The notes under the pieces are model-generated. The model was not told the DNA's origin. It saw nothing but the letters and a program-made list of their open reading frames with translations, and made no database searches. The position numbers were made by a program, and so were the translations under genes. A DNA stretch of 64,000 nt from Eledone cirrhosa (taxonomy: Eukaryota): NCBI GenBank assembly GCA_964016885.1, contig OZ024766.1, forward strand, positions 6,324,001-6,388,000. The letters are read 5' to 3'. Below, in pieces: positions 2,753 through 52,439 of this stretch (the stretch's first letter is position 1; every line of letters starts with the position of its first letter).

Positions 2753-3001
2753 TCAGGAGCAGGTAAGCTGTACTGACTTAGAGGCCTACCACCAATCTCC
2801 AGGACACTGTTTTCAAGACAAATGAATGCCTCATTGAAAACGACATTGTATGTTAAGTTTGGATTGTGTCTGCGTGTGCGGTGGAAGATGTCCTCAGCTA
2901 GACTTTCACGGTGGTTGTTCCACAGTGCGAGAGGGTCTATATATAATATAGAAGTGGCTTCTACAGGACTAGAACTGTTCCATTTGAAGGAAATCATCAG
3001 A

Positions 3002-3050
3002 GCTTCCTGATGATTTCTCTGGAATGAAACAGTTCTAGTCCTGTAGAAGC
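3002..3050 (+). ncRNA. Type I hammerhead ribozyme fold (family A)
   Basis: GCUUC-CUGAUGA-UUUC/UCUG/GAAU-GAAA-CAG-uucuaguc-CUG-UA^GAAGC. Stems I and III pair. Confidence 0.75.
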
Positions 3051-3200
3051 CATTTCTATATTAAATATTTATATTCTGCTATGTATTGAGTACCTTACTT
3101 ACTGTGGTTACCCCCGATTGAACCGGGGATACACACACACATATATATATATACACACACACACACATATATACACACACATATACACACACACACATAT

Positions 3201-4653: not shown

Positions 4654-4793
4654 ATATACACATACATATACATCTCTCCATCTCACTTTCTCTCTCCCTC
4701 TCCAACCATGACCAAACCACGGAACCACCAAACAAACCACCAAACCAACAAAAACCACCAAACCACCAACCAAACCAACCAAACCAACTATAG

Positions 4794-4958
4794 CTAACTA
4801 TGGCTACCTGGATTTCTCTGATGTGTGTCACCACTACCTAGGGAAGTTTGGTTTCTACACCTCTATCACCTGCTCCCTGATGTCTCTCGTTGGTGGAATG
4901 ATTGTCTACTGGATCCTTATGAGTAACTTTCTCTACAATACCGTCTCTTTCTTTGTAG
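4794..4958 (+). CDS. SLC38A9: SLC38A9 exon (first exon in window; gene is 5'-partial)
   Basis: tag|CT AAC...GTA G|gtaagt. Encodes [54 protein letters not shown], matching the SLC38A9 motif DVCRHYFG...GAMIVYWVLMSNFLFNT. Confidence 0.93.
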
Positions 4959-5023
4959 GTAAGTCAGATTTGTTACATAACTCTCTCTCTCTATCTCTCT
5001 CTCTCTCTCTCTCTACCCCCCAC

Positions 5024-5060
<37 letters not shown>

Positions 5061-5066
5061 ATGTAT

Positions 5067-5405
5067 GGAGGCACATGGCGTAGTGGTTAGAGCATTGGCC
5101 TTGCAATCGAAAGGTTGCGAGTTCAATTCTCAGACCGGGCGATGTGTTGTTTCCTTGAGCAAGACACTTTATTTCACATTGCTCCAGTTTACTCAGCTGT
5201 AGAAATGAGATGATAGGGACTGGGGTCCCGATCATTCCACTGCAAAGTGGACGTGAAGGTGCCACGGCAAAAAAAGCACCCAGCACTCACTGTAAATGAG
5301 GTTGGTGTTAGGAAGGGCATCCAGCTGTAGAAATCAAGCCAGAATCAGTTCCCGTCCCACCCTTGCTAGCAGGGAAAAGTGGACGTAAAATGAAAGGATA
5401 AATGA
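5067..5405 (+). mobile_element. tRNA-derived SINE family 1 (LINE-like 3' tail)
   Basis: ggaggcacatggc(g/t)tagtggttagagc A-box, gagttcaattc B-box, ccttgagcaagacactttatttcacattgctcc core, tail cccacccttgc(a/t)agcagggaaaagtggacgtaaaatga. Copies at about 7545-8016(-), 10990-11340(-), 13160-13884(-), 18138-18475, 27475-27805(-), 27890-28200(-), 32175-32604(-), 38754-39135, 41226-41550, 61452-61800 and 63850-64000(-). Confidence 0.9.
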
Positions 5406-5508
5406 TATATTTCTAGTGGGACAATTCCCGTCTAAACCCATGCTAGCATGGAAGATAGACGTTAAACGATGATGATGATGATATACCTCTCTCTCTATAT
5501 ATATACCG

Positions 5509-6040
5509 TGGAGGCACGTGGCCTAGTGGTAAGAGTGTTGGACTTACGAACATAAAGGCGTGGGCTTGATTCCTGGGTTGTGTGTTGTTTCCTTGAGCAA
5601 AACACTTCATTTCACGTTGCTCCAGTATACTCAGCTGAAAATGAGTACCAGCAATGGCTGGAGGTTTAACCCTGTGATGGACTGGTGTCCTGTCCAGGGG
5701 AAGTCTTGTACTCTCAGTCACTTAACACCAATGAAACTAAGACAGACTTTAACCCTGTGATGGACTGGTGTCCTGTCCAGGGGAAGTCTTGTACTCTCAC
5801 TCACTTAACACCAATGAAACTAAGACAGACTTTAACCCTGTGATGGACTGGTGTCCTGTCCAGGGGGAAGTCTTGTACTCTCTGTCACTTAACACTAATG
5901 AAACTAAGACAGACTTTAACCCTGTGATGGACTGGTGTCCTGTCCAGGGGGAAGTCTTGTACTCTCAGTTGCTTCATGCCATGAAACCGGGATAAGCACT
6001 GGCCAAATGAGCCTTCTGACTTAAGACAGACTTTAGACTA
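5509..6040 (+). mobile_element. Related tRNA-SINE with 76-bp tandem repeat in its 3' part
   Basis: ggaggcacgtggcctagtggtaagagtg head and ccttgagcaaaacacttcatttcac core, then 4x aaccctgtgatggactggtgtcctgtccagggg. Confidence 0.8.
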
Positions 6041-6110
6041 TATATACCCCCCATCTCACACCACAGTCATCTTATTAATAAAACCTCTTCATTTCTGCTT
6101 CAATTTTCAG

Positions 6111-6134
6111 AATCTCCTGCAAGTAATGCTTCAG
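6111..6134 (+). CDS. SLC38A9: SLC38A9 24-nt microexon (ESPASNAS)
   Basis: Pyrimidine tract, then ttttcag|AATCTCCTGCAAGTAATGCTTCAG|gtgagt. Phase 1-1, fits the frame of the flanking exons and falls in the luminal loop before VLCP. Confidence 0.75.
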
Positions 6135-6499
6135 GTGAGTTCTTATAAATTAATACACACACACACATATTTTTTTTTCCGTTCATTGTCAGGGAACGTC
6201 TTCACGAACCAAAGTATCATCTTCCTGTTTTCCTTCGGTTGCAACGTTTTTTTAGATATTTACTTCTGCGTTCACAGATTGATTTTTTTTTCAGAAGATC
6301 CCATTAAGGGTGAAAGCAGCGATTCTTTGCTTAAACTTTAATCTGTTATTTTGATAAATATTTGCTCTAGGGTTCTTATATATTTGATATATATTTATCC
6401 TTATCGAGCCCTCTTTGGATTTTAGTCTTCACATTTATTATTATTACTACTGTATATATATATATAGAGAATAAAAGAGAAAATACAGGTAAGCATTAA

Positions 6500-6913
6500 A
6501 AAAAGGATTTTATCCAGGTATTTACGACCGTTTCATTGGTAAGCGCAACCTTATATTGCTATACTGCAAATAGCAGCCACTTGATAATAACTGTTATTCA
6601 CCTTCAAATTTTCAAAATAATGCATAAGTTACTTGTAAAAGGTTCTTAATATATAGAAAAAACATTTTTGAGGAATCGTATTTACTAATATAGAGAGAGA
6701 GGAAGGGGGAGAAGAATTAGGAAGTAGTGGGACAAACGTAGATGGGGGGGAGGGGTAAAGATGGAATGATTCCTCGATCAGTTTTGATTCGTAGACTTGA
6801 TGTCAATTTACAGTGTAGGGAGTTAAAGAGAATTAAATTGTTTATAGTGGGAGGGAGAGAGGGGGATGGGGGGAGAGAGAGAGATAAATATATATATAAA
6901 AAAGGGGGAAGAG

Positions 6914-6946
<33 letters not shown>

Positions 6947-7535
6947 GGAAGAGAAGAAAAGAAAACGAAAAAAGAGAAAAGGAATGAAGGAGGAGAGAAG
7001 GACTTAAGTATTGGTTACTGTGGGTAATTAAAGGGGTTAGATTCAATAAGAGGGTAGAAAGTCAAAGTATATGCAGTTTGTCGGGTGGTAGTAGGAGGTT
7101 AAGGGTTCAATTTGCGCTTGTAGTGTGAACATTTTTCTTTAAGTCTATGGTTGCAATAAATTGATCTTTCGATTTTATTGTTGAGTATCTTATTCTTCGA
7201 ACTCAAAATGTGGAACAGCTGAAGGTCACATAACCGACAGCTTCTCATACCACTCCGATATGCAGGCGCATTAGATAATTTTTTCCACTTCAGGGTGTAT
7301 TAATGGTTACTTTCCCTCAGTTGCCAGGTCTTGTTCGCAAGGGTAGTTACATAACGATGCTGGGAATGTTTCATTGCGTAACGGTGTGTATACCAACGGG
7401 CTTTAAATTCATTCCCAGTCGCTCCGATGTAATACCATTTCTGGTTGTCTGATTCGACCGTGCATTGGTAAACCAGGTTAGACTGCATTCATTCATTATG
7501 TAATGGACAGGTGTCAGGTAGGTGGCAGTTACAAT
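6500..7535 (-). mobile_element. Penelope-like element 3' remnant (GIY-YIG endonuclease plus 3' region)
   Basis: NCHLPDTCPL...NLVYQCTV...YYIGATGNEFKARWYTH...TTLANKTWQL...CRLC, the PLE GIY-YIG pattern with frameshifts. Confidence 0.8.
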
Positions 7536-8071
7536 ATATCATCATCATCATCATCATTTTACGTCCGCTTTTCCCTGCTTGCAAGGGTGGGACGGGAACT
7601 GATTCTGGCTTGATTTCTACAGCTGGATGCGCTTCCTAACACCAACCTCATTTACAGTGAGTGCTGGGTGCTTTTTTGCCGTGACACCAACATGACCACT
7701 TTGCAGTGAGTGCTGGGTGCTTTTTTGCCCTGGCACCTTCACGGCCACTTTACAGTGAGTGCTGGGTGCTTTCTTTGCCGTGGCACCAACACGACCACTT
7801 TACAGTGTGGGCTGGGTGCTTTTTTGCCATGGCGCCTCCATGTCCACTTTACAGTGTAATGCTAGGGACCCCAGTCATTTCTACAGCTGAGTAAACTGGA
7901 GTAATGTGAAATAAAGTGTCTTGCTCAAGGAAACAACACATCACCCGGTCTGAGAATTGAACTCGCAACCTTTCGATTGCAAGGCCAATGCTCTAACCAC
8001 TAAGCCATGTGCCTCCAATATATATATATATATATATATATATTTATCTATCTATCTCTCTCTCTCTCTAG

Positions 8072-8305
8072 TACTCTGCCCCAACGCCAACACCACGGGT
8101 CACACCAACTACAGCTACACACACCAGTCTCATCATAACCCCTACAAAGCCTTCAACAGCCTCGAGAGTACCGCAGGGACCAATATGGACCTTTACCACA
8201 AGATCTGGAGCCTAAAGCGTACAGTTCCCGTCTTCCTACTGTTTCTCCTTTTCCCGTTACTCAACTTCAAGTCACCGACTTTCTTCACCAAGTTTAATTC
8301 CTTGG
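8072..8305 (+). CDS. SLC38A9: SLC38A9 exon
   Basis: ctctag|TA CTC TGC CCC...TTG G|gtaag. Encodes VLCPNANTTG...IWSLKRTVPVFLLFLLFPLLNFKSPTFFTKFNSL (cf. RTVPFYL...PLLNFKSPSFFSKFN). Confidence 0.95.
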
Positions 8306-8879
8306 GTAAGTATCTCATCTCATCTCATGTGATGTGGTGGCATTCAATCATTTTCCTCTCGTTTTTTTTTTTTTTTGTCGTATATTTTCTTCCCCCTGCT
8401 TCTTCTTCTTCATCTGGCAGTAGAATCGGTAGAGGGTCGGACGCCATGCTTTTGTGGCACGGAGTTACGGCCCTTTACTGTGTTCTGAGTTTAAACTCCC
8501 TGCCGAGGTTAACTTTGCCTTTCATCCTTACGGGGGTCGATAAAATAAAGTACCAGTAATACACTGGGGTAATTGCTGGCCTTGTGCCTAAAGTAGAAAC
8601 AATTATTATTATTTGCAGGATAGAGTTACGGCCCTTTACTGTGATCTGAGTTCAAATCCTGTTGAGGTTAACTTTTCCTTTCATCCTGACAGGGTCGATA
8701 AAATAAAGTACCAGTAATACACTGGGCTCAATTTAAAATTGCAGGCCTTGTGCTCATTGTAGAAAGCATTATAAAGTACCAGTAATATACTGGGGTTGAT
8801 TTAATTGATATATTGAGCCCCAACAGCCCCATATTTCTATATATTTCAGCTACGATCTCTAACATATTTAATGATTTTC

Positions 8880-9630
8880 ACCAATTGTCTTTGGGTTGTT
8901 AGGCAAGGCCCCTAAGCGTCTTACATCTTTCGTCAATAGCTTTTGGATCCCTGATTTCATAAGCAGTGCCCAAATTACTGACAGAATCTTGCGCCATATA
9001 TTGAGGCTCTAAGATTGGGGTCTGATCTGTGCCCAATTAACATGCTTCACCTAGCAAAATCGTTCAACAAAAAAGCCTTGGGAACCCCAACTTCATAAGC
9101 AGTGCCCAAATTTCTACCATCACGTTATTGCCAGACTCCTGCCTGACCACCATGTAGACACAAAAGTTGTGCCAATCGTCTTTGTGCTGCTAGGCATGGT
9201 CCCTAAACGCCTTACATCATTCAACAAAAGCCTTGGGAACCCCAACTTCATAAGCAGTGCCCAAATTTCTACCATCACGTTATTGCCAGACTCCTGCCTG
9301 ACCACCATGTAGACACAAAAGTTGTGCCAATCGTCTTTGTGCTGCTAGGCATGGTCCCTAAACGCCTTACATCATTCAACAAAAGCCTTGGGAACCCCAA
9401 CTTCATAAGCAGTGCCCAAATTTCTACCATCACGTTATTGCCAGACTCCTGCCTGACCACCATGTAGACACAAAAGTTGTGCCAATCGTCTTTGTGCTGC
9501 TAGGCATGGTCCCTAAACGCCTTACATCATTCAACAAAAGCCTTGGGAACCATAACTTTATAAGCAGTGCCCAAATCTCTACCATCGCTACCATTGCCAG
9601 GCTTCTGCGTAATATATTTACTGAGCCCCA
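8880..9630 (+). mobile_element. R4/Dong-like (REL endonuclease) LINE 3'-end fragments, 155-bp unit tandemly repeated
   Basis: Translates to VVPIVFVLLGMVPKRLTSFNKSLGNHNFISSAQISTIATIARLLRNI, resembling the C-terminal VPIVIGALG...ARILR motif of REL-type non-LTR elements. Confidence 0.65.
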
Positions 9631-9690
9631 GAGATGTTTTACAGCTGGATGCCCTCCCTAACAACAGCCCCATATTTCTATATATTTCAG

Positions 9691-9795
9691 CTACCATCTC
9701 TGTAACATATTTAATGATATTCAGTATCATCAAGGCCTCCCAGTGGGGTATCAACATTGAATTTAAAGTCAAAACCTCTGACCACTACTCACAAA
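9691..9795 (+). CDS. SLC38A9: SLC38A9 exon
   Basis: tttcag|CT ACC...CAA A|gtaag. Encodes ATISVTYLMIFSIIKASQWGINIEFKVKTSDHYSQ. Confidence 0.92.
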
Positions 9796-10375
9796 GTAAG
9801 TTATACCGTCTCTCTGTGTCTGTCTCTCTCTTCCTCTCTCTCTTTCTTTCCCCCCTCTCTCTCTCTCTTGGGGAAAAGGAAACAAGATGAGGAGAAATTT
9901 ACGTATTTACTTAAAACATCCCCTACTGCAGTTTCATTGAGTAAACCTCAGTATTGAGTACTGTGAAAATCTCCATATATATATGTCTATACTTGTGTGT
10001 GTGTATATATAAATATTGTTATACTTGGGGAGGGTCATAATTGTGTAATATTGCCAGAATTAATAACAGAACACACTCACTGTTTGGTTGGTTTTCGCTT
10101 TTCGCTTCTGTGTCTTTTATATCTATATATATGTGTTTGTGTCTATATTATATCTGTATTATTTTTGACCGTTGGTCAGTCAATGGCAACATTGAGGACC
10201 GAATAAATTAGATTACCGATATAAAAGACACAAAAGCGAAAACCAACCAAACAGTGAGTGTGTTCTGTTATTAATTCTGGCAATATTACACAAATATGAC
10301 CCTCCCCAAGTATAACAATATTTGTTTCGACACACGATTTCATATAAAAAACCTCACAAAACTAATTCATCGCCG

Positions 10376-10411
<36 letters not shown>

Positions 10412-10452
10412 AAATGAAAATCCGAAGGCAAGGTAAAATTCCAATCATTTAA

Positions 10453-10530
10453 TCACGACACGTTTCAATAAGAGATAGATATAGATCGATTGTGAAGCCA
10501 TGATTGATTATCACTGATCTCATCAGGTGA
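10453..10530 (-). ncRNA. Hammerhead ribozyme fold with long, weak stem II
   Basis: UCAC-CUGAUGA-...-GAAAC-GU-GUC^GUGA. Confidence 0.55.
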
Positions 10531-10891
10531 AAATGAATTGTCTTCAAATTCTTGATATGAGGGAGAAAAAAACGATGTTCTCTCACAGAATTGAGGGAAT
10601 GAATTCTGTGAGAGAACATCGTTTTTTTCTCCCTCATGTCAAGAATTTGAAGACAATTCATAATCGATCATGGCTTCCCAATCGATCTATCTCTTATTGA
10701 AACATGTCGTGATTAAATGATTGGAATTTTACCTTGCCTTCGGATTTTCATTTTGATACTTATGCTCCGTTTTACATCATCTAGCTGTTCCCTCGAATGG
10801 AATTGGAGATATACAAAAGCGTGGAGAACTTAATATTGCTAACATAAAGTTATTGGACCGTTTTACACAACCAATAATACACCTTACTATA

Positions 10892-10931
<40 letters not shown>

Positions 10932-11451
10932 GGGAGAAAAACACATGTATTCAGTCAGCCATCTTGGATAGTATATATATATATATATATCATTTCATTT
11001 TCATTTCATTTCATTTTACGTCCACTTTTCCCTGCTTGCAAGGGTGGGACAGGAACTGATTCTGGCTTGATTTCTACAGCTGGATGCCCTTCCTAACACC
11101 AACCTCATTTTACAGTGAGTGCTGGGTGCTTTTTTTTTGCCGTGGCACCTCCATGACCACTTTACAGTGGAATGATAGGGACCCCAGTCCCTATCATCTC
11201 ATTTCTACAGCTGAGTAAACTGGAGCAATGTGAAATAAAGTGTCTTGCTCAAGGAAACAACACATCACCCGGTCTGAGAATTGAACTCACAATCTTTCGA
11301 TTGCAAGCCCAATGCCCTAACCACTGAGCCATGTGCCTCCATATATATATATTGGGGGAGAAAAACACATGTATTCAGTCAGCCATCTTGGAGAGTATAT
11401 ATATATATATAATATTAAATAAATGGAAAACTATATTTATAAAACCATATT

Positions 11452-11517
11452 TATTTCATTATATATATTTCGGGGATATCATATTAACAATATGCTATGC
11501 CTTCATCAGACAAAATA
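11452..11517 (-). ncRNA. Minimal hammerhead fold (family B; identical copy at 13996-14061, related copy on + at 45775-45839)
   Basis: UAUUUUGU-CUGAUGA-AGG...CC-GAAA-U-AUAU-A-UA^AUGAAAUA. Confidence 0.65.
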
Positions 11518-11737
11518 CAATATAAACAGTTTTATAGATAAATATATTCGACATACCGTAATATTTATTTCATTATATATATTTTCGGGGAAATATATAT
11601 AATGAAATAAATATGGTTTTATAAATATAGTTTTCCATTTATTTAATATTGTAAATATACTCCAAATATTTGTCGAGTGCTTTTATATCAGTTATAAATA
11701 TTTACTAGTTGTAACCCAACAATTTTAAATATAACCT

Positions 11738-11768
<31 letters not shown>

Positions 11769-11830
11769 CTATATATATATATATATAAATTCAAAATATT
11801 AACAAATATAGACATTCGTGTGATCAAGTA

Positions 11831-11897
11831 TATTTTATTATACATATTTCAGAGGTACTGAGCTATCTTCAACAGTACGTCCTCATCAGATAAAATA
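11831..11897 (-). ncRNA. Minimal hammerhead fold
   Basis: UAUUUUAU-CUGAUGA-GGAcGUACUG...CAGUACcUCU-GAAA-U-AUGU-A-UA^AUAAAAUA, with a perfect 8-bp stem I. Confidence 0.75.
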
Positions 11898-11994
11898 ACA
11901 TGATGCATGACATACCTTGACTAAGTAGTGGAGTGCTTCTAATCTATTGTAAAACTTTATTCATTGATTTATTCATTGAACCTTGTTTAACCTT

Positions 11995-12035
<41 letters not shown>

Positions 12036-12384
12036 TCTCCAAGATGGCTGACTGAATACATGTTTTTCTCACCCCAATGTTTTTCTCATTTTCCCTGTTC
12101 CTTCCTCTCATCACTCTTTACTTCCTATTTATCTTTTATTTCTAACTCTTTCTTTTGATGACGAAGGACTAGTGTCCGAAACTTTAAGACTCTCTTCCTT
12201 CTATTTCAAGCATTAAACTAATACATTTCTTCTATGTACTGTACCAAACGTTGTTATTTCTGTTATTACTTTGAAATATATATATATATATATATATAGG
12301 TACGTTATTCCGGGTTGAATCGGAGGTAACCACAGTAAGTAAGGTACTCAATACATTGCAGAGTATAAAAGTTTTAATATAGAT

Positions 12385-12489
12385 GAGATTCTACAGGACT
12401 AGAACTGTTTCATTCTTTAGAAATCATCAGGAATCTCTGAGATTCCTGATGATTTCTAAAGAATGAAACGGTTCTAGTCCTGTAGAATC

Positions 12490-12585
<96 letters not shown>

Positions 12586-12831
12586 ATGAGATTCTACAGG
12601 ACTAGAACTGTTTCACTCTTTAGAAATCATCAGCGATTCCTGATGATTTCTAAAGAATGAAACAGTTCTAGTCCTGTAGAATCTCATCTCTCTCTCTCTC
12701 TCTCTCTATCTATATATATATATATATATATAGATGAGATTCTACAGGACTAGAACTGTTTCATTCTTTAGAAATCATAAGCGATTCCTGATGATTTCTA
12801 AAGAATGAAACAGTTCTAGTCCTGTAGAATC
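12385..12831. ncRNA. Cluster of family A hammerheads in three head-to-head pairs
   Basis: Complete folds on - at 12385-12437 and on + at 12439-12491, 12635-12683 and 12783-12831: (GA)GAUUC-CUGAUGA-UUUCUAAAGAAU-GAAA-C(A/G)G-uucuaguc-CUG-UA^GAAUC(UC). Confidence 0.8.
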
Positions 12832-12834
12832 TCA

Positions 12835-12878
<44 letters not shown>

Positions 12879-12936
12879 CCACTGTTTGTCCATAATTTCT
12901 ACCTCTACTCACCCTCCACTCACACTCTCACTCCAG

Positions 12937-13043
12937 ATATCTCCTCCAACATGGCAGCTCTGACTGGAGTTGCAGCCATGGCATATTTCATCCACAACTG
13001 TGTCCTGTCAGTCTTGAGATGTGAGGAAAAACCAGAGAATGGG
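12937..13043 (+). CDS. SLC38A9: SLC38A9 exon
   Basis: ctccag|AT ATC...AAT GGG|gtgagc. Encodes NISSNMAALTGVAAMAYFIHNCVLSVLRCEEKPENG (cf. LTGVLTLAFFIHNC). Confidence 0.94.
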
Positions 13044-14494
13044 GTGAGCAGGTCTTTTGTTGTTGTTGTTGTTACTGTTGTTGTTGTTAGTACTAGTGTG
13101 TGTGTGTGTGTGTATATATAGGCAAAAGAAATATTTTCTTCTTCCTACACATACATCCTTTCATCCTTTCCTTTCATTTTACGTCCCGTTTTTTCCCTGC
13201 TTGCAAGGGTGGGACGGGAACTGATGCTGGCTTGATCTCTACAGCTGGATGCCCTTCATAACACCAACCTCATTTACAGTGAGTGCTGGGTGCTTTTTTG
13301 CCGTGGCACCTCCACGACCACTTTACAGTGGAATGATAGGGACCCCAGTCCCTATCATCTCATTTCTACAGCTGGATGCCCTTCCTAACACCAACCTCAT
13401 TTACAGTGAGTGCTGGGTGCTTTTTTGCCGTGGCACCTCCACGACCACTTTGTAGTGGAATGATAGGGAACCCAGTCCCTATCATCTCATTTCTACAGCT
13501 GGATGCCCTTCATAACACCAACCTTATTTACAGTGAGTGCTGGGTGCTTTTTTGCCGTGGCACCTCCACGACCACTTTGTAGTGGAATGATAGGGAACCC
13601 AGTCCCTATCATCTCATTTCTACAGCTGGATGCCCTTCATAACACCAACCTTATTTACAGTGAGTGCTGGGTGCTTTTTTTTGCCGTGGCACCTCCATGA
13701 CCACTTTGCAGTGGAATGATGGGGACCCCAGCCCCTATCATCTCATTTCTACAGCTGAGTAAACTGGAGCAATGTGAAATAAAGTGTCTTGCTCAAGGAA
13801 ACAACACATCACCCGGTCTGAGAATTGAACTCACAACCTTTCGATTGCAAGCCCAATGCCCTAACCACTGAGCCATGTGCCTCCATATATATATATTGGG
13901 GGAGAAAAACACATGTATTCAGTCAGCCATCTTGGAGAGTATATATATATATATAATATTAAATAAATGGAAAACTATATTTATAAAACCATATTTATTT
14001 CATTATATATATTTCGGGGATATCATATTAACAATATGCTATGCCTTCATCAGACAAAATACAATATAAACAGTTTTATAGATAAATATATTCAACATAC
14101 CGTAATATTTATTTCATTATATATATTTTCGGGGAAATATATATAATGAAATAAATATGGTTTTATAAATATAGTTTTCCATTGTCGGGCGCCAATTGGC
14201 GCCGCTGGTCACAGCACACCGTGCTGTTTTAGCCATAAGATAACGCCATCCCACTGGCTGGGCAGGCAGGCCGATACTCATTTCTACAGCTGAGTAAACT
14301 GGAGCAATGTGAAATAAAGTGTCTTGCTCAAGGAAACAACACATCACCCGGTCCGAGAATTGAACTCACAACCTTTTGATTGCAAGGCCAATGCTCTACG
14401 AGACAGGCACACCATATTATTTTAAATTAGTATTTGTTCGACCTAGCTAACTTGGTCATTTGCAATTCGAACACATGTATACTTGTATCAGTGT

Positions 14495-14925
14495 TTATCC
14501 CTTTCATTTGTATATATACACATGGTGGTATGTACATTTGTATATATATACATGGTGGTATGGACATTTGTATATATACACATGGTGGTATGTACATTTG
14601 TATATATATACATGGTGGTATGGACATTTGTATATATACACATGGTGGTATGTACATTTGTATATATATACATGGTGGTATGGACATTTGTATATATACA
14701 CATGGTGGTATGTACATTTGTATATATATACATGGTGGTATGGACATTTGTATATATACACATGGTGGTATGTACATTTGTATATATATACATGGTGGTA
14801 TGGACATTTGTATATATACACATGGTGGTATGTACATTTGTATATATATACATGGTGGTATGGACATTTGTATATATACACATGGTGGTATGGACATTTG
14901 TATATATACACATGGTGGTATGGAC
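14495..14925. repeat. 30-bp minisatellite (about 14 copies) seeded from the 5' edge of an RTE fragment
   Basis: catggtggtatg(t/g)acatttgtatatata(c/t)a, with alternating variants. Confidence 0.95.
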
Positions 14926-15182
14926 ATGTGATGGTCATGTGATGCGCATAGAGGATGACCGATGGGTGAAGAAGTGCCAGGAAATGCCAGTTGAAGGAAG
15001 ACGTGGTAGAGGTAGACCACGAAAAACATGGGCGGAGGTGGTGAGAACAGACCTCAGATCATTGAAGCTCACGGTGGAGATGACGAAGGACCGTGACGAG
15101 TGGAGAGATGCTGTGCTGAATAAGACCCGTCCCACCCTTGCAAGCAGGGAAAAGCGGACGTAAAATGATGATGATGATGATA
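14912..15182 (+). mobile_element. RTE-clade LINE 3' end
   Basis: GHVMRIEDDRWVKKC...GRRGRGRPRKTW...DRDEWR...[13 protein letters not shown] followed by an (ATG)n tail. Confidence 0.9.
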
Positions 15183-15249
15183 TATATATAAAAATCAATC
15201 AACAGGTGTATATAAATCAATCAACAGGTGTATATATTTCTCTCCCCAG

Positions 15250-15354
15250 GTACGAGACCTCAGTATTGCCTTCTTTCTCGTCTGTTTCACCTACCTCTTT
15301 GTGGGAGTTACTCTCTACATCACCTTCCCCCTGGCAAAGTCCTGTATCCAGGAT
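15250..15354 (+). CDS. SLC38A9: SLC38A9 exon
   Basis: ccccag|GTA CGA GAC...CAG GAT|gtaagt. Encodes VRDLSIAFFLVCFTYLFVGVTLYITFPLAKSCIQD. Confidence 0.94.
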
Positions 15355-16110
15355 GTAAGTATACTCTCTCACTCTCACTCACTCACTCATACTGACACAC
15401 TCACTCTCGCACTCTCTCTCACGCTCTCTCACTCACACTCTCACTCTCTGATACTCTCACTCAGTCTCACTCTCTCTCATGCTCTCACTCTATCATATAC
15501 TCTTACTCAGATTCTCACTCTATCATATACTCTCACTCACACTCTCTGATACTCTCACTCACACTCTCTCATACTCTCACTCACACTCTCTCATACTCTC
15601 ACTCACACTCTCTCATACTCTCACTCACACTCTCTCATACTCTCACTCACACTCTCTCTCTCTCATACTCTCTCACATTCTCACTCATACTCTCTCTCAC
15701 ATTCTCACTCATACTCTCTCTCACATTCTCTCATACTCTCTCATACTCTCACTCACACTCTCACTCACACTCTCTCTCATACTCTCTCTCATACTCTCAC
15801 TCACACTCTCTCTCATACTCTCTCTTATACACCTCTCACATTCTCAGTCACTCTCTCACTCTCACACTCATACTCTCACTCATACTCATACTGTCTCTCA
15901 CCTTCTCAGTCACACTCTCACTCATACTCTCTCTCACCTTCTCAGTAGTCACACTCTCACTCATACTCTCTCTCACCTTCTCAGTCACACTCTCACTCAT
16001 ACTGTCTCTCACCTTCTCAGCAGTCACACTCTCACTCCCAGCAAAGTTACCCTCGGCGAGATCTGAACTCAGAATATAAAGGGACCTCCTCACTTTCTCT
16101 CTATTTCTAG

Positions 16111-16259
16111 AATCTGATGAACAACCTGCCCCTACATGACATCCTGGCCTTTGTTGCCAGGATATGTATGCTGCTGCAGATGGTCGCGGTCTTCCCATTA
16201 CTCATCTATGTTTTCAGAGTACAGTTCTTTCATGTAATCACTGGAAATATCCACCCTGG
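16111..16259 (+). CDS. SLC38A9: SLC38A9 exon
   Basis: ttctag|AAT CTG...CCT GG|gtacgt. Encodes NLMNNLPLHDILAFVARICMLLQMVAVFPLLIYVFRVQFFHVITGNIHPG. Confidence 0.94.
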
Positions 16260-16278
16260 GTACGTATCTATCTATCTG

Positions 16279-16312
<34 letters not shown>

Positions 16313-16315
16313 AAC

Positions 16316-17110
16316 AATTGATTCCCTTCTTTAAGTATCACTTTAGAAGGAGAATCAGGGTGGAGAGAGAGGCACTGCACCCCAGTAAATTTACTGAAAG
16401 GTGGGTGAATGAAGCGAAAATGGCCCGAGTGATTGGGCCTTCTCTGTATATAAGCCTGTAGGTTGAGGAAGAGAGCAAAAGGAAGAAAGGAGCACTTGCA
16501 CAACATGCTCCTGAAGTTGAGGGTTGTTCTATCGACGGGGTATTAAACAACCCATTTGTGGCGCCTCCCCCCTATTGGGGATTTCGATTGTTGAAATTGT
16601 TTGTTTTTATATTTTTTACACGACTGTATGTAAAATCCCCGGCATGTCTTTGTATTGTCCCCTTTCTTGTTGCGCCCTTGTGGCTAATAAAGAAATCTAT
16701 CTATCTATCTAACTGATTCTTTTTTTCAAATACCACTTTGGAAGAAGAATCAGGATGGAGAGAGAGAGGTGCTGTACCCCAGCAAGTTTTATGAAAGGTG
16801 GGTGAAAGTGGCGAGAATGGCCCCCAGTGAATGGGCCTTCTCTCTATATCAGCCTGTAGGTTGAGGAAAAGGAGGAGGAGAGGAAAGGAGTACAAACTCT
16901 TTGTACTCCTGGAGATGAGGGTTGCACATTTTTTTTCGGGGGTATGTGTTACCCATATAAACTGTCTCCCCCTATTGGGGAAAATCGACTAACTTTTTAA
17001 ATTCCATTTGTGATAACATTTTACACGTTTTTATTGTATGTAAACTTCCCCCTTTGTATTTGTCCCCTTCTTTTGTGCCCCTGTGGCTAATAAATAAATA
17101 TATCTATCTA
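16316..17110 (+). mobile_element. Two tandem 5'-truncated L1/Tx1-like 3' ends between (TATC)n tracts
   Basis: Two diverged ~390-bp units. The first reads FFKYHFRRRIRVERE...ERWV...; each ends ...gtggctaataa + (tatc)n. A related piece lies at 40860-40990(-). Confidence 0.6.
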
Positions 17111-17959
17111 TCTATCTATCTATCACACACACACAGACACATGTATATCATCATCATCATCATCATTTTACGTCTGCTTTTCCCTGCTTGCAAGGGTGGG
17201 ACGGGAACTGGTTCTGGCTTGATTTCTACAGCTGGATGCCCTTCCTAACACCAACCTCATTTACAGTGAGTGCTGGGTGCTTTTTTTTCCATGGCACCTC
17301 CACTGCAACCCTGATGGTATCCAATGATGTTGACTTGTTCTTCTTTTTGGTAAATATCATCTTGGTTAAGAGAGTGGGACTGGCTTTGTGCAGTGCCTTT
17401 GCTCACTACAAAAGCTTCACGGCACAGGCATTGCTTTATATCTGGAGATCTCTCTGCACTTGTCGTCACATGGTACCATGGGCCCAGCACTATGTGTCAA
17501 TAATTGTCACAAGTGTAGTGTTTGTACCAGAGTTTTCAAGTCGCTGGCTGGACTGAAAAGTCACACTTGTTTAGCGCATCTGTAGGGGTTCTCCTACATG
17601 GATATAAAGTAGTGGCCGTACTCGAAAACGAGTTGGCAGCCACCATATATATGTATGTATGTATATATATATATCATCATCACCGTTTTACGTCCGTTCT
17701 GCCACGCTAGCATGGGTTAGACGGGTTGTCCTGTTGTGGGCAGTGCCCGGTCGGCTGACCATGCCTTGCTCATACAGGAACTGATTTGGCTTGATTTCTA
17801 CAGCAGGATGCCCTTCCTAACACCAACCTCATTTACAGTGAGTGCTGGCTGCTTTTTCGTGGCGCCTACACGTCCACTTTACAGTGTGGGCTGGGTGTTT
17901 TTTTGCCGTGGCACCTCCACGACCACCTTGCAGTGGGAGGGTGTGGGGGCATATTGTCT

Positions 17960-18118
17960 ATATGCTTCAGCTTGTACCTATGGGAGGTCGGGTACTCTGT
18001 ATTACTGCGTGACGCCAGAGGTCACGGTCATGTGTCATCGCCTTTGAGAGGTGTAATTGGGTAAGGTCGGCTTTTATCACCTCATCCCAGGTCATCTTGG
18101 GTCTCCCCACTCCGCGGT
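17960..18118 (-). mobile_element. RTE LINE 3' fragment
   Basis: RGVGRPKMTWDEVIKADL...DRDLWRHAV. Confidence 0.8.
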
Positions 18119-18548
18119 TATATATGTATATATATATGGAGGCACATGGCTTAGTGGTTAGAGCATTGGCCTTGCAATCGAAAGGTTGTAAGTTCAATTC
18201 TCACCCCGGGTGATGTGTTGTTTCCTTGAGCAAGACACTTTATTTCACATTGCTCCAGTTTACTCAGCTGTAGAAATGAGATGATAGGGACTGGGGTCCC
18301 TATCATTCCACTGTAAAGTGGTCGTGGAGGTGCCACGGCAAAAAAGCACCCAGCACTCACTGTAAATGAGGTTGGTGTTAGGAAGGGCATCCAGCTGTAG
18401 AAATCAAGCCAGAATCAGTTCCCGTCCCACCCTTGCAAGCAGGGAGAAGTGGACGTAAAATGATGATGATGATATATATATTTGACAGTAGTCTATGAAT
18501 GACCAGCTCCATACCACACCATATTTATCTCACCTCTCTATATTTCAG

Positions 18549-18638
18549 AATACTCAAAATAATGGCTATGAATCTAATAATGTGTAGTATTAGTATCCTG
18601 TTTGCTTGTTTCCTGCCTAAGATAGGCAAAGTCATAGG
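18549..18638 (+). CDS. SLC38A9: SLC38A9 exon
   Basis: tttcag|A ATA CTC...ATA GG|gtgagt. Encodes ILKIMAMNLIMCSISILFACFLPKIGKVI (cf. MACFYPNIGGII). Confidence 0.92.
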
Positions 18639-18715
18639 GTGAGTTGCTATCTTCCTATCCCTGTATTTTACACTAACACACACAGATAGCTGACATGTAT
18701 ATATGTGTATGTGTA

Positions 18716-18746
<31 letters not shown>

Positions 18747-19143
18747 GTGAGTGGGTGTATGTGTATGTATATGTGTATGTGTATATATGTGTGTGTGTAT
18801 ATATGTGTGTATATATATATATATGTGTGTGTGTGTGTATATGTGTGTGTGTATATATATATATGTATGTGTATATATATGTGTGTATGTGTATATATAT
18901 GTGTGTATGTGTATATATGTGTGTGTATATATATGTGTGTGTGTGTGTATATATGTGTGTGTATATATATATATATGAGTGAGTGTATGTGTATATATAT
19001 GTGTGTGTGTGTGTATATATATATATGTGTGTGTATGTATGTGTGTGTGTATATGTCTATATATAAGTTGCTATCTTCCTATCCCCGAATTTTACACTAA
19101 CACACACAGAGATAGCTGACATGTATATATGTCTGTGTATATG

Positions 19144-19195
<52 letters not shown>

Positions 19196-19225
19196 AGTGG
19201 GTGTACGTGTATATATATGTGTGTG

Positions 19226-19264
<39 letters not shown>

Positions 19265-19298
19265 ATGTGTGTGTATATGTATGTGTGTATATGCGTGC

Positions 19299-19412
<114 letters not shown>

Positions 19413-19599
19413 ATATATGTGTGTGTGTGTGTGTGTGTATATATGTGTGTGTGTGTGTGTGTGTATATATGTGTGTGTGTGTGTGTGTGTATATATGTGT
19501 GTGTGTGTGTGTGTGTATATATGTGTGTGTGTGTGTGTGTGTATATATGTGTGTGTGTGTGTGTGTGTATATATGTGTGTGTGTGTGTGTGTGTATATA

Positions 19600-19686
<87 letters not shown>

Positions 19687-19928
19687 ATATATGTGTGTGT
19701 GTGTGTGTATATATGTGTGTGTGTGTGTGTATATATGTGTGTGTGTGTATATATATATGTGTGTATGTGTGTGCGCACACATATATATATATATATATAT
19801 ATGTACACACACATATATGTGTGTGATATATATATGTGTGTGTGTGTGTCCACACCGCCACCCTCACCACAACAACACCACACCACCACAACACCACCCT
19901 CACCATATTACTGTTTATATTCCTCTAG

Positions 19929-20103
19929 ATTTGTTGGAGCATTCTGCGGTTTCTCCTACGCATTGGGCCTACCTTTCCTAGTCCATCTGATATCGTTGTA
20001 CGAAAAACACTGTCTCACCTGGTACAGTTTCGTCTTCCACTCCTTTATCATCATTATGGGCTTAGTCAATTTTATCGCACAGTTTTTTATCTCTACACAT
20101 TGA
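19929..20103 (+). CDS. SLC38A9: SLC38A9 last coding exon with stop
   Basis: ctctag|A TTT GTT GGA...CAT TGA. Encodes [15 protein letters not shown]...[29 protein letters not shown]. The nine exons total 1154 nt and join in frame from a phase-1 start. Confidence 0.95.
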
Positions 20104-20259
20104 AGAGGTTAACTGCTACAAGAACTACTACTACTACTACCACTACTACTACTACTACTACAGCTACAGCAGTAACGAGAACAACAGTAACAACAACAGT
20201 AACAGCAGTAACAACAGCAACAGTAACAACAATAACAACAACAACAACAACACAATTGA

Positions 20260-25178: not shown

Positions 25179-25225
25179 TGCTCTGAAGACTCCAAGCCTA
25201 GGTTTGGATGAAACAATTGTAAGTG
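25179..25225 (+). ncRNA. Minimal hammerhead fold
   Basis: UGCU-CUGAAGA-cUCCAAGC/CUAG/GUUUGGAu-GAAAC-AAUU-GUA^AGUG. Confidence 0.75.
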
Positions 25226-41573: not shown

Positions 41574-41935
41574 AACCTTAAAATTACTATAGATACGAAC
41601 CATACCAATGCTAACTTTCTTGACATTAATCTTGATCTACTTACCGCCTCTTTTAAACCTTATCATAAACCTAACGAGAATCTAAGATATATACACAAAG
41701 AGTCTTGCCACCTCCCTATAGTTTTTAAAAATCTTATTCCCAATATTAACCGTAGGATTTCTACCTTATCTTCGTCTCTAGACATTTTTAACAAAGCCAC
41801 CCCTTATTTTAACAAAGCTGCCCCTTATTATAATAAAGCCCTCATTAACAGTGGCTTTACAGAACATATTAAATATTTACCTATTCCTCCCCCTAAAACT
41901 AATCACAATAGGAAAAGGAAAATTAAAAGCTCCAA
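41574..41935 (+). mobile_element. Penelope-like RT C-terminal fragment
   Basis: Open frame NLKITIDTNHTNANFLDINLDL...FKPYHKPNENLRYIHKESCH...INRRISTLSS...[13 protein letters not shown]...RKRKI. Confidence 0.85.
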
Positions 41936-42421
41936 CTGGATTGATATATATTTATTTATGTAGATATATATTTAGATGTATATATGTATACATATTTATA
42001 TATATATTTATGTATATATATATATATCTTTATATGTTTATATATATATATATTTATATATATATATATATATTTATAGGTATATATATTTATATATATA
42101 TTTATAGGTATACATATTTATATATATATATATTTATTAATATATATATATTTATAGGTATGTATATATATATATACATATATATACATGTGTATATATA
42201 TAAATTTACATACACACATATATGTATATATATAAATAAACAGACACATATATATATATATATATATATAATTATAAACAAATATATATGAAAACACATA
42301 CATATATACACACATATACACATTATAGACATGTATATCTATACATGTATATATATATATATATATACCTATTATAGAGATATACAAATATATAAAATAT
42401 ATTATATAATATATATATTTA

Positions 42422-45499: not shown

Positions 45500-45760
45500 C
45501 TAGTTCTATTTCTTTTTCGGCTTTTGGAATTATTGTAATGTTTTCTATTATAGTTGTTAAAGTTGTTACGGTAATTGAAATTGTTATTATTTTGGTTAGT
45601 TTGCTTATTATTATTATTATCGATGTATTTAATTTTATTTCTATATCCATCTCTACCTAACGCATCGTTGTAATACTGCGCTTTTTCATCAAATATATTT
45701 TTATTAGATGAAATTCTTGAAATTCGTTCTTGAACAGAGTTCACCAAAGCTATTTGTAAA
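45500..45760 (-). mobile_element. Penelope-like RT C-terminal fragment
   Basis: LVNSVQERISRISSNKNIFDEKAQYYNDALGRDGY...RKRN, the same region as 41574-41935. Abuts a hammerhead-bearing segment on the opposite strand. Confidence 0.8.
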
Positions 45761-52024: not shown

Positions 52025-52439
52025 CAAAGGAATTGTTGTAAGGAACCAGATGGACCATAACACACCAGAGTACTCAATACTTAGGGTAGTAGAGTGGGAA
52101 ATAGGAAAAAGTATGCGCCCGACGGATTCCAGAAGTAGCCGTCGAAACGGCTTGAGCTCTGCCGTCGAGATCATACTTTTTCCTATATATATATAATATA
52201 TATATATATAATATATATATATATTATATATATATATATATTATATATAATATATATATATATTATATATAATATATACATATATATATATATAAGTTTA
52301 TCCCGGGTTCAATCGGGGGTAACCACAGTAAGTAAGGAACTCAATACAATGCAGAGTATATATATTTAATATAGAAAAGGCTTCTACGGGACTAGAACTG
52401 TTTCATTCGGGAGAAATCATCAGTAAGTATATATATACA

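Follow-up and report, generated by a model that had tools for sequence, protein, structure and literature searches.

Three head-to-head pairs of minimal hammerhead ribozymes are found in an intron of an SLC38A9-like gene of Eledone cirrhosa. They are copies of a very common Penelope-type fragment, and probably not a switch of the host gene. Judged by its sequence, the parent of these copies is a young Penelope-like element (PLE) with intact open reading frames (ORFs), and it carries the motifs of the Hydra clade, to which it is assigned by these motifs. We consider it likely that the pairs are insertions of fragments of this Hydra-clade-like element, produced by two-ended priming, run-off at the capped RNA start, and head-to-head joining. 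The size of the family, the parent element, the (TA)n flanks, the long and short outer ends, and the sharp inner ends form the basis of this reading; units 2 and 3 of the locus count against it, being without a long arm and belonging to a minority class (5 of 52 pairs).

Three hammerhead pairs in an SLC38A9-like intron

The initial annotation of the window, by which we mean the whole stretch of 64,000 nucleotides that was analysed, described three inverted hammerhead pairs in an SLC38A9 intron, separated by (CT)n/(TA)n and ending about 100 nt upstream of the exon at 12937, and this description holds. The pairs are located at 12381-12495, 12584-12689, and 12732-12837, with arms of 57, 50, and 50 nt and a complementarity of 96–98%, and the spacers between them are (CT)n at 12488-12581 and (CT)n(TA)n at 12690-12731. 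A 23-nt core motif occurs nine times in the window versus 0 times in 100 shuffles. The host gene is SLC38A9-like and lies on the plus strand; the peptide encoded by the exon has matches to structures of SLC38A9 (E 0.002), and a protein of Argonauta hians maps to eight plus-strand exons from 4790 to 20109, which places the intron at approximately 9796-12936. The left arm of unit 1 also possesses an 80-nt extension (12301-12380) that had been missed before. The locus consists of the following parts.

12276..12298, no strand: (TA)n target tract, left flank (sequence)
12301..12437, minus strand: unit 1 long arm, corresponding to the predicted PLE transcript from +1 to +136 (fold, identity to intact elements)
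12431..12445, no strand: unit 1 junction, where both arms reach the predicted +1 A with an extra base each and one W between them
12439..12495, plus strand (pre-mRNA strand): unit 1 short arm, complete minimal hammerhead, GUA site 12484 (fold scan)
12488..12581, no strand: (CT)46 spacer (repeat)
12581..12633, minus strand: unit 2 antisense arm, ending at C3, without the 5' strand of stem I (fold scan)
12635..12689, plus strand: unit 2 sense arm, a minimal hammerhead whose stem I has 5 bp, site 12678 (fold scan)
12690..12731, no strand: (CT)n(TA)n spacer within the 148-nt duplication of units 2 and 3 (repeat)
12728..12781, minus strand: unit 3 antisense arm, ending at C3, with G5>U (12779) (sequence)
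12783..12841, plus strand: unit 3 sense arm, a minimal hammerhead whose stem I has 5 bp, site 12826, with (TA)n at the end of the arm
12837..12867, no strand: (TA)15 target tract, right flank (repeat)
12937..13043, plus strand: exon of the SLC38A9-like amino-acid transporter, host context outside the element

The long arm of unit 1 comprises a complete minimal hammerhead (site after 12392) and the 5' leader up to the distal start of reverse transcription (RT), carries an extra G at 12437, and is 97.8–99.3% identical over 136 nt to the 5' end of the intact elements L090, L093, and L094. Unit 1 would be a canonical product of the proposed insertion route. Units 2 and 3 repeat with a period of 148 nt at 91% identity and share a common centre, which argues that they are one duplicated product; this would be a single short-short product, duplicated once in the neighbouring tract. 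Alternatively all three units may derive from one insertion with a remade centre, and units 1 and 2 do share a (CT)n run. Among the reads and contigs matched to the window, none spans the triple.

Other hammerheads are present nearby. Further hammerhead families lie in the SLC38A9 introns at 11452-11517, 11831-11897, and 13996-14061 (-), and the segment 11400-11600 is a near-duplicate of 13950-14150. A degenerate hammerhead-like motif with C3>U (12155-12195, +) is located in a repeat covered by many contigs, a related copy of which flanks the locus L086, and a further minimal hammerhead with a 7-bp stem II is found at 25179-25225 (+). The tRNA-like matches at 18147-18204 (+) and 13818-13875 (-) are probably SINE heads.

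A young and abundant family

A 44-nt core of the arms has 7,515 exact copies in the genome, and tight head-to-head pairs give 1,834 and 1,837 matches on the two strands, or about 1,830 loci. The 115-nt sequence of unit 1 used as a query returned 1,969 candidates. All 21 fetched loci possess (TA)n-type flanks, and the one-sided 80-nt extension is found at the 20 fetched loci other than this one. Tail-to-tail neighbours 20–50 nt apart occur at 15 places including this locus, and multi-unit arrays are present elsewhere (four units at L086, three at L080); with about 1,830 pairs in the genome, neither the pair nor the cluster is therefore unique. The arms are approximately 1% diverged, so the insertion is young. 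Arms that continue into the native upstream sequence of the parent number 5,290.

It may be asked if the palindrome spreads whole as a non-autonomous unit, either MITE-like or as a hairpin retrozyme. Identical centres do recur (104 exact copies genome-wide of the unit 1 type and 17 of the type shared by units 2 and 3), and the 40 scored loci are 96–100% identical over 115 nt. However, the centres are very diverse, they face either way with respect to the long arm (13:7), the tail variants cut across centre types, and the outer ends are unequal, unlike terminal inverted repeats, and we regard whole-unit spread as highly improbable.

Several relatives of the family were observed in passing. A head-to-head pair of a sister subfamily (2944-3131) is 87% identical to the long arm and has stem I changed on both sides; loop II is not the same in its two arms, and its long arm starts 6 nt before C3. 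The sister subfamily is also represented by a solo arm at 52298-52426 (-), which is cut at C3 and has (TA)n flanks. An imbalance between plus and minus counts of core copies and upstream arms hints at a tandem array. Reads and contigs on 12367-12436 also contain a head-to-tail junction with a period of about 78 nt (78 reads with 16 starts in run X21), possibly a mini tandem form of the element; a genome pattern search for a 78-nt head-to-tail form gave 0 matches with a pattern that was probably two letters short, and this result carries no evidence.

The parent Penelope-like element

The extension of the arm continues into a long ORF at three loci (L026, L038, and L054). A protein search yielded 73 scored matches at 95–100% identity, most of them without stops, and in L090 and L092 open frames of 759 amino acids begin directly after the same hammerhead. 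Read in these two copies, the protein contains an RT core (YRDD), the RWR and DKT motifs, a CxCX5C linker, and CxxC and CxH motifs. The C-terminus of the frames is GIY-YIG-like, as in single-ORF PLEs that carry an endonuclease (EN+); the Pfam GIY-YIG match has an E-value of 0.022, which is below the cut-off, L090 has none, and homologues carry PF01541 and PF00078 in single cases. As to the CCHH motif, which Hydra-clade elements lack, two cysteines lie between the GIY- and YIG-like words, but at a distance of 8 residues from each other. A pLTR or partial tandem with a hammerhead, an inverted 5' copy, and a tail at one end are all found in L054, L090, and L092-L094, and the first ATG of the element is at +182.

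The Hydra clade comprises PLEs with a C-terminal endonuclease (Craig et al., 2021, PMC8557442). In the part of that paper which describes the clade, the shared features are a short single ORF with RW and DKT motifs, the CxCX5C linker, CxxC/CxH near the C-terminal GIY-YIG end, a pLTR hammerhead, (TA)n targeting, an inverted 5' copy, and a one-end tail. In contrast to that description, the present element has a very high copy number, RWR instead of RWK, a tail of about 70 nt versus 30–40, and many insertions that consist of only the first 60–140 nt on both sides. A Neptune label was considered and dropped, for the Hydra clade definition given there fitted better. Other PLE ORF fragments, 37–56% identical to the query P0002, occur in the window at 7108-7533 (-), 41583-41936 (+), and 45619-45747 (-), and the 3' region of the parent (L090:3225-4100, L054:6480-7400) contains a mixed (TA)/(TG) microsatellite of approximately 0.7–1 kb that is part of the element.

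Ends, junctions and the predicted start site

For the ends we analysed a sample of 52 pairs, taken in order of position along the first 147 Mb of one chromosome. The outer ends comprise one long and one short end in 42 pairs, two short ends in 5, a medium and a short end in 4, and two long ends in 1; counted from the cleavage site, the long ends are most frequent at +91 nt and the short ends at +15 and +22. Inverted copies with long spacing show the same one-long, one-short arrangement in 9/9 loci. This long/short asymmetry is the “tail” that PLEs carry on one side. Ordinary elements terminate at either site, so that the short end also serves as one of their 3' ends, and both ends thus resemble genuine RT starts.

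The inner ends are sharply defined. In 47 of the 52 pairs, the point where the fuller (longer) arm stops lies 4–7 nt upstream of C3, and with up to 30 nt permitted in the search, only 3/104 arms reach at least 8 nt upstream of C3. The same stopping point applies to solo arms joined to (TA)n in 18 of 22 distinct loci, as counted by eye among the 100 matches listed. In the parent sequence, the base at this point is an A with Inr-like surroundings; a TATA box lies exactly at -30 in 22 of 32 native arms (-30 to -37 in 29 of 32), and a CCAAT-like box lies mostly at -84 (17 of 32). From these motifs and the insertion ends we infer that the transcript of the element starts at this A, the first base of stem I. 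Of 10 insert-bearing junctions in which an arm ends at +1, 8 continue with C in the cDNA. The extra G may be a copied cap, as in LINE-1, where part of the literature takes an extra G as the mark of cap copying (PMC11702581).

Few junctions lie near the cleavage site (27 plus 58 loci, at most 85), which argues that the templates were mostly uncleaved RNA. Among the 58 near-site loci listed, 35 end exactly at the cleavage site; some cleaved RNA may have been copied, or a deletion between the two stem I strands may have produced these ends.

A rival explanation keeps the same PLE origin and lets a single cDNA fold back at its 3' end with the aid of stem I, or prime itself on an antisense template. 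The two arms of a pair do share variants above chance (9 shared versus a shuffled mean of 0.67), and A14T, where present, is shared by the two arms (6 of 88 pairs) and never confined to a single arm, in a set where most pairs were picked with patterns that fix the A14T position; such sharing points to a common source of the two arms, which may be one RNA or two RNAs of one locus, and it fits equally with fold-back copying or arm-to-arm conversion. Fold-back of stem I also predicts the same extra C, and its predicted next CA is seen in 5 of 8 such ends. Centres that extend the stem I complementarity exist (L041, L043), and head-to-head palindromes have been attributed to self-priming in the portion of the rotifer work on PLEs that treats them (PMC3846280). 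Against this, both arms often reach -5/-6 with 0–1 nt between them, which is too tight for a self-priming loop, and in insert junctions a 5-nt end is followed by A or C in 13 of 14 cases and not by the predicted T. The short end that coincides with the 3' end of ordinary elements also speaks against fold-back, as does the fuller 5' end, which can be on either arm; the latter, together with tail variants mixed across junction types, fits repeated independent formation. Pure stem I fold-back as the source of the centre was demoted by the TATA/Inr geometry, and we consider this rival, taken as a whole, unlikely.

Proposed route of insertion

Under the preferred reading of two-ended priming, the element enzyme would cut a TA repeat at the target, and reverse transcription would be primed from both DNA ends at two internal RNA sites, approximately +136 and +60 to +68, on a template RNA that is mostly uncleaved. 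If the priming sites were those of the 5' copy, both cDNAs would run off at the cap after 60–140 nt, and the two short cDNAs would then be joined by microhomology or by end-joining with small templated inserts. Longer arms would arise from RNA that extends upstream (a 3' pLTR or read-through). The resulting stubs are likely dead ends since they are without a promoter. Retroviral strong-stop DNA is likewise a short cDNA that runs off the 5' end of its RNA. By analogy, the palindromes would be integrated “strong-stop” DNAs, primed from both ends at two fixed sites on uncleaved RNA with run-off at the cap, a proposal to which we give about even chances.

The reported part of the in vitro work on a PLE of Anolis describes cutting and extension of both strands, two internal RT starts, and use of mostly unprocessed RNA (PMC11167929). 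This Poseidon system (Frangieh et al., 2024) is also similar in its AT-rich targets and in a tail bounded by the two internal starts; the RT starts of Poseidon are 111–118 nt inside the ORF, while those proposed here lie between the ribozyme and the first ATG. Run-off at the cap and head-to-head joining are not dealt with in that part of the work. The inverted pLTRs of Adineta Penelope elements, in the sections of PMC3846280 that deal with them, share the head-to-head repeats, the optional tail, and TATA/Inr-like motifs in the pLTR; there antisense-template self-priming was proposed, whereas the ends described here fit a sense capped template better. LINE-1 twin priming, in the account excerpted from PMC11702581, likewise joins two primed ends and shows an extra G at the full-length 5' end, but its two cDNAs cover adjacent parts of the RNA, while those of the present route would overlap fully, both at the 5' end.

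Hammerhead folds and predicted masking

As the initial annotation had claimed, three complete folds lie on the pre-mRNA strand; their GUA sites, located on the plus strand by a descriptor scan, are 12484, 12678, and 12826. The palindrome CUAG is contained in loop III, UUCUAGUC. Each sense ribozyme is indeed directly preceded by its antisense copy; a complete antisense hammerhead is found only in unit 1, at 12385-12437, which is the sole complete minus-strand fold among the three units, and the descriptor scan detected no minus-strand fold in the antisense arms of units 2 and 3. The core is that of a type I hammerhead, with CUGANGA, GAAA, NUH, and stems I–III. Stem I has 7–8 bp in unit 1 and 5 bp in units 2 and 3, and stem II has 3 bp closed by U.U at 10.1/11.1 in place of a G10.1-C11.1 pair. 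Both-sided changes in stem I are observed in the sister subfamily (3002-3050) and at 2 loci. The Rfam hammerhead models gave no match even at E<=10. Rfam miRNA matches were rejected as generic hairpins below the gathering score.

The metazoan minimal hammerheads of PLEs (Cervera and de la Pena, 2014, PMC4209133) are, in the passages that describe them, similar in their type I core, in a loop III whose palindrome suits the formation of dimers, in their dispersal as thousands of copies, in the occurrence of dual copies on opposite strands, and in a low expected activity. They differ in the spacing of opposite-strand copies (about 100–700 bp versus 0–15 nt here), in stem II (7–8 bp with G10.1-C11.1 versus 3 bp with U.U), and in stem III, which unlike theirs has 4 bp here. 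Animal non-LTR retrozymes, as presented in the relevant parts of two reports (bioRxiv 10.64898/2026.07.22.740005; PMC7229834), also consist of type I hammerhead repeats derived from PLE pLTRs, but they are head-to-tail tandems able to release a circle, while the present units are head-to-head, of sub-unit length, and masked in predicted hairpins. Only units 2 and 3 are in tandem here, and the head-to-tail units with available hammerheads that mark a non-LTR retrozyme are absent.

The annotation had further proposed that a long hairpin competes with the active fold, and computation agrees. The hairpins predicted for the pairs have energies of -78 to -88 kcal/mol each. When the antisense arm is included, the hammerhead fold stands 62–69 kcal/mol above the ensemble at 37 C, and the predicted gap is larger at 15 C. 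In the order of transcription the antisense arm is made before the sense ribozyme. Even for the isolated sense copy, a non-hammerhead fold is predicted to be favoured by 4.4–4.9 kcal/mol. Two copies of the stem III region would pair at -12.8 kcal/mol versus -1.4 for the hairpin, and dimeric minimal hammerheads cleave poorly in vitro according to the portion of PMC4209133 that reports it. In the pre-mRNA, the triple would form three hairpins of about 50 bp that keep the ribozymes off as a by-product. A built-in or conditional switch, the last part of the earlier proposal, is not upheld, since about 1,830 loci display this geometry as the normal product of a mobile-element insertion, and a gap of more than 60 kcal/mol argues against switching. 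Modelled in this way, silencing at the triple is likely, though constitutive and incidental, with no switch evident.

Long perfect hairpins serve as ADAR substrates, and cephalopods are known for heavy RNA editing. One could accordingly suppose that the triple was co-opted as a regulator of SLC38A9, through conditional self-cleavage, an effect on splicing, or a hairpin beside the exon that could draw ADAR; three intact sense folds do lie 100–500 nt upstream of the 3' splice site. We hold this to be very unlikely, for the insertion is young with thousands of similar copies, whereas a conserved intronic regulatory hammerhead would be single-copy and shared between species at an orthologous intron; the predicted masking also weighs against it, and the 56 nt before the splice site fall outside the long hairpins. 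A 2,010-nt contig from run X4, for which run type and genotype are not recorded, covers only 12937-13045 of the window with 0 differences, that is, the exon alone at its expected boundaries, which fits normal splicing. Within the gene span 4790-20109, 3/3 unpaired intact hammerhead folds are antisense to the pre-mRNA, and all three sense folds sit in hairpins, in a sample too small for a test.

Implications for the element and its host

The relevant parts of earlier papers already describe inverted 5' copies of PLEs, tails, and (TA)n targeting (PMC8557442, PMC3846280), as well as minimal hammerheads on opposite strands (PMC4209133). How PLEs make their inverted ends is posed as an open question in the section of PMC8557442 that discusses them, and literature searches confined to main texts returned no paper that ties the inverted junctions of PLEs to a transcription start.

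Taken by itself, the locus is repeat debris of an ordinary kind, and one should not read it as a regulatory ribozyme. If the strong-stop reading is true, approximately 1,800 junctions mark the first base of the hammerhead as the point where transcription starts, and the head-to-head ends of PLEs are explained without an antisense template. Self-cleavage would then decap the element's own mRNA, and the ribozymes would land masked on both strands, an arrangement that may render insertions into introns safe. The family is useful because it offers a young element whose ORFs are intact, together with about 1,800 minimal products whose ends are sharp to the base, and it yields exact predictions, namely the start site, two RT starts, and a cap-dependent extra base, for an in vitro assay that already exists.
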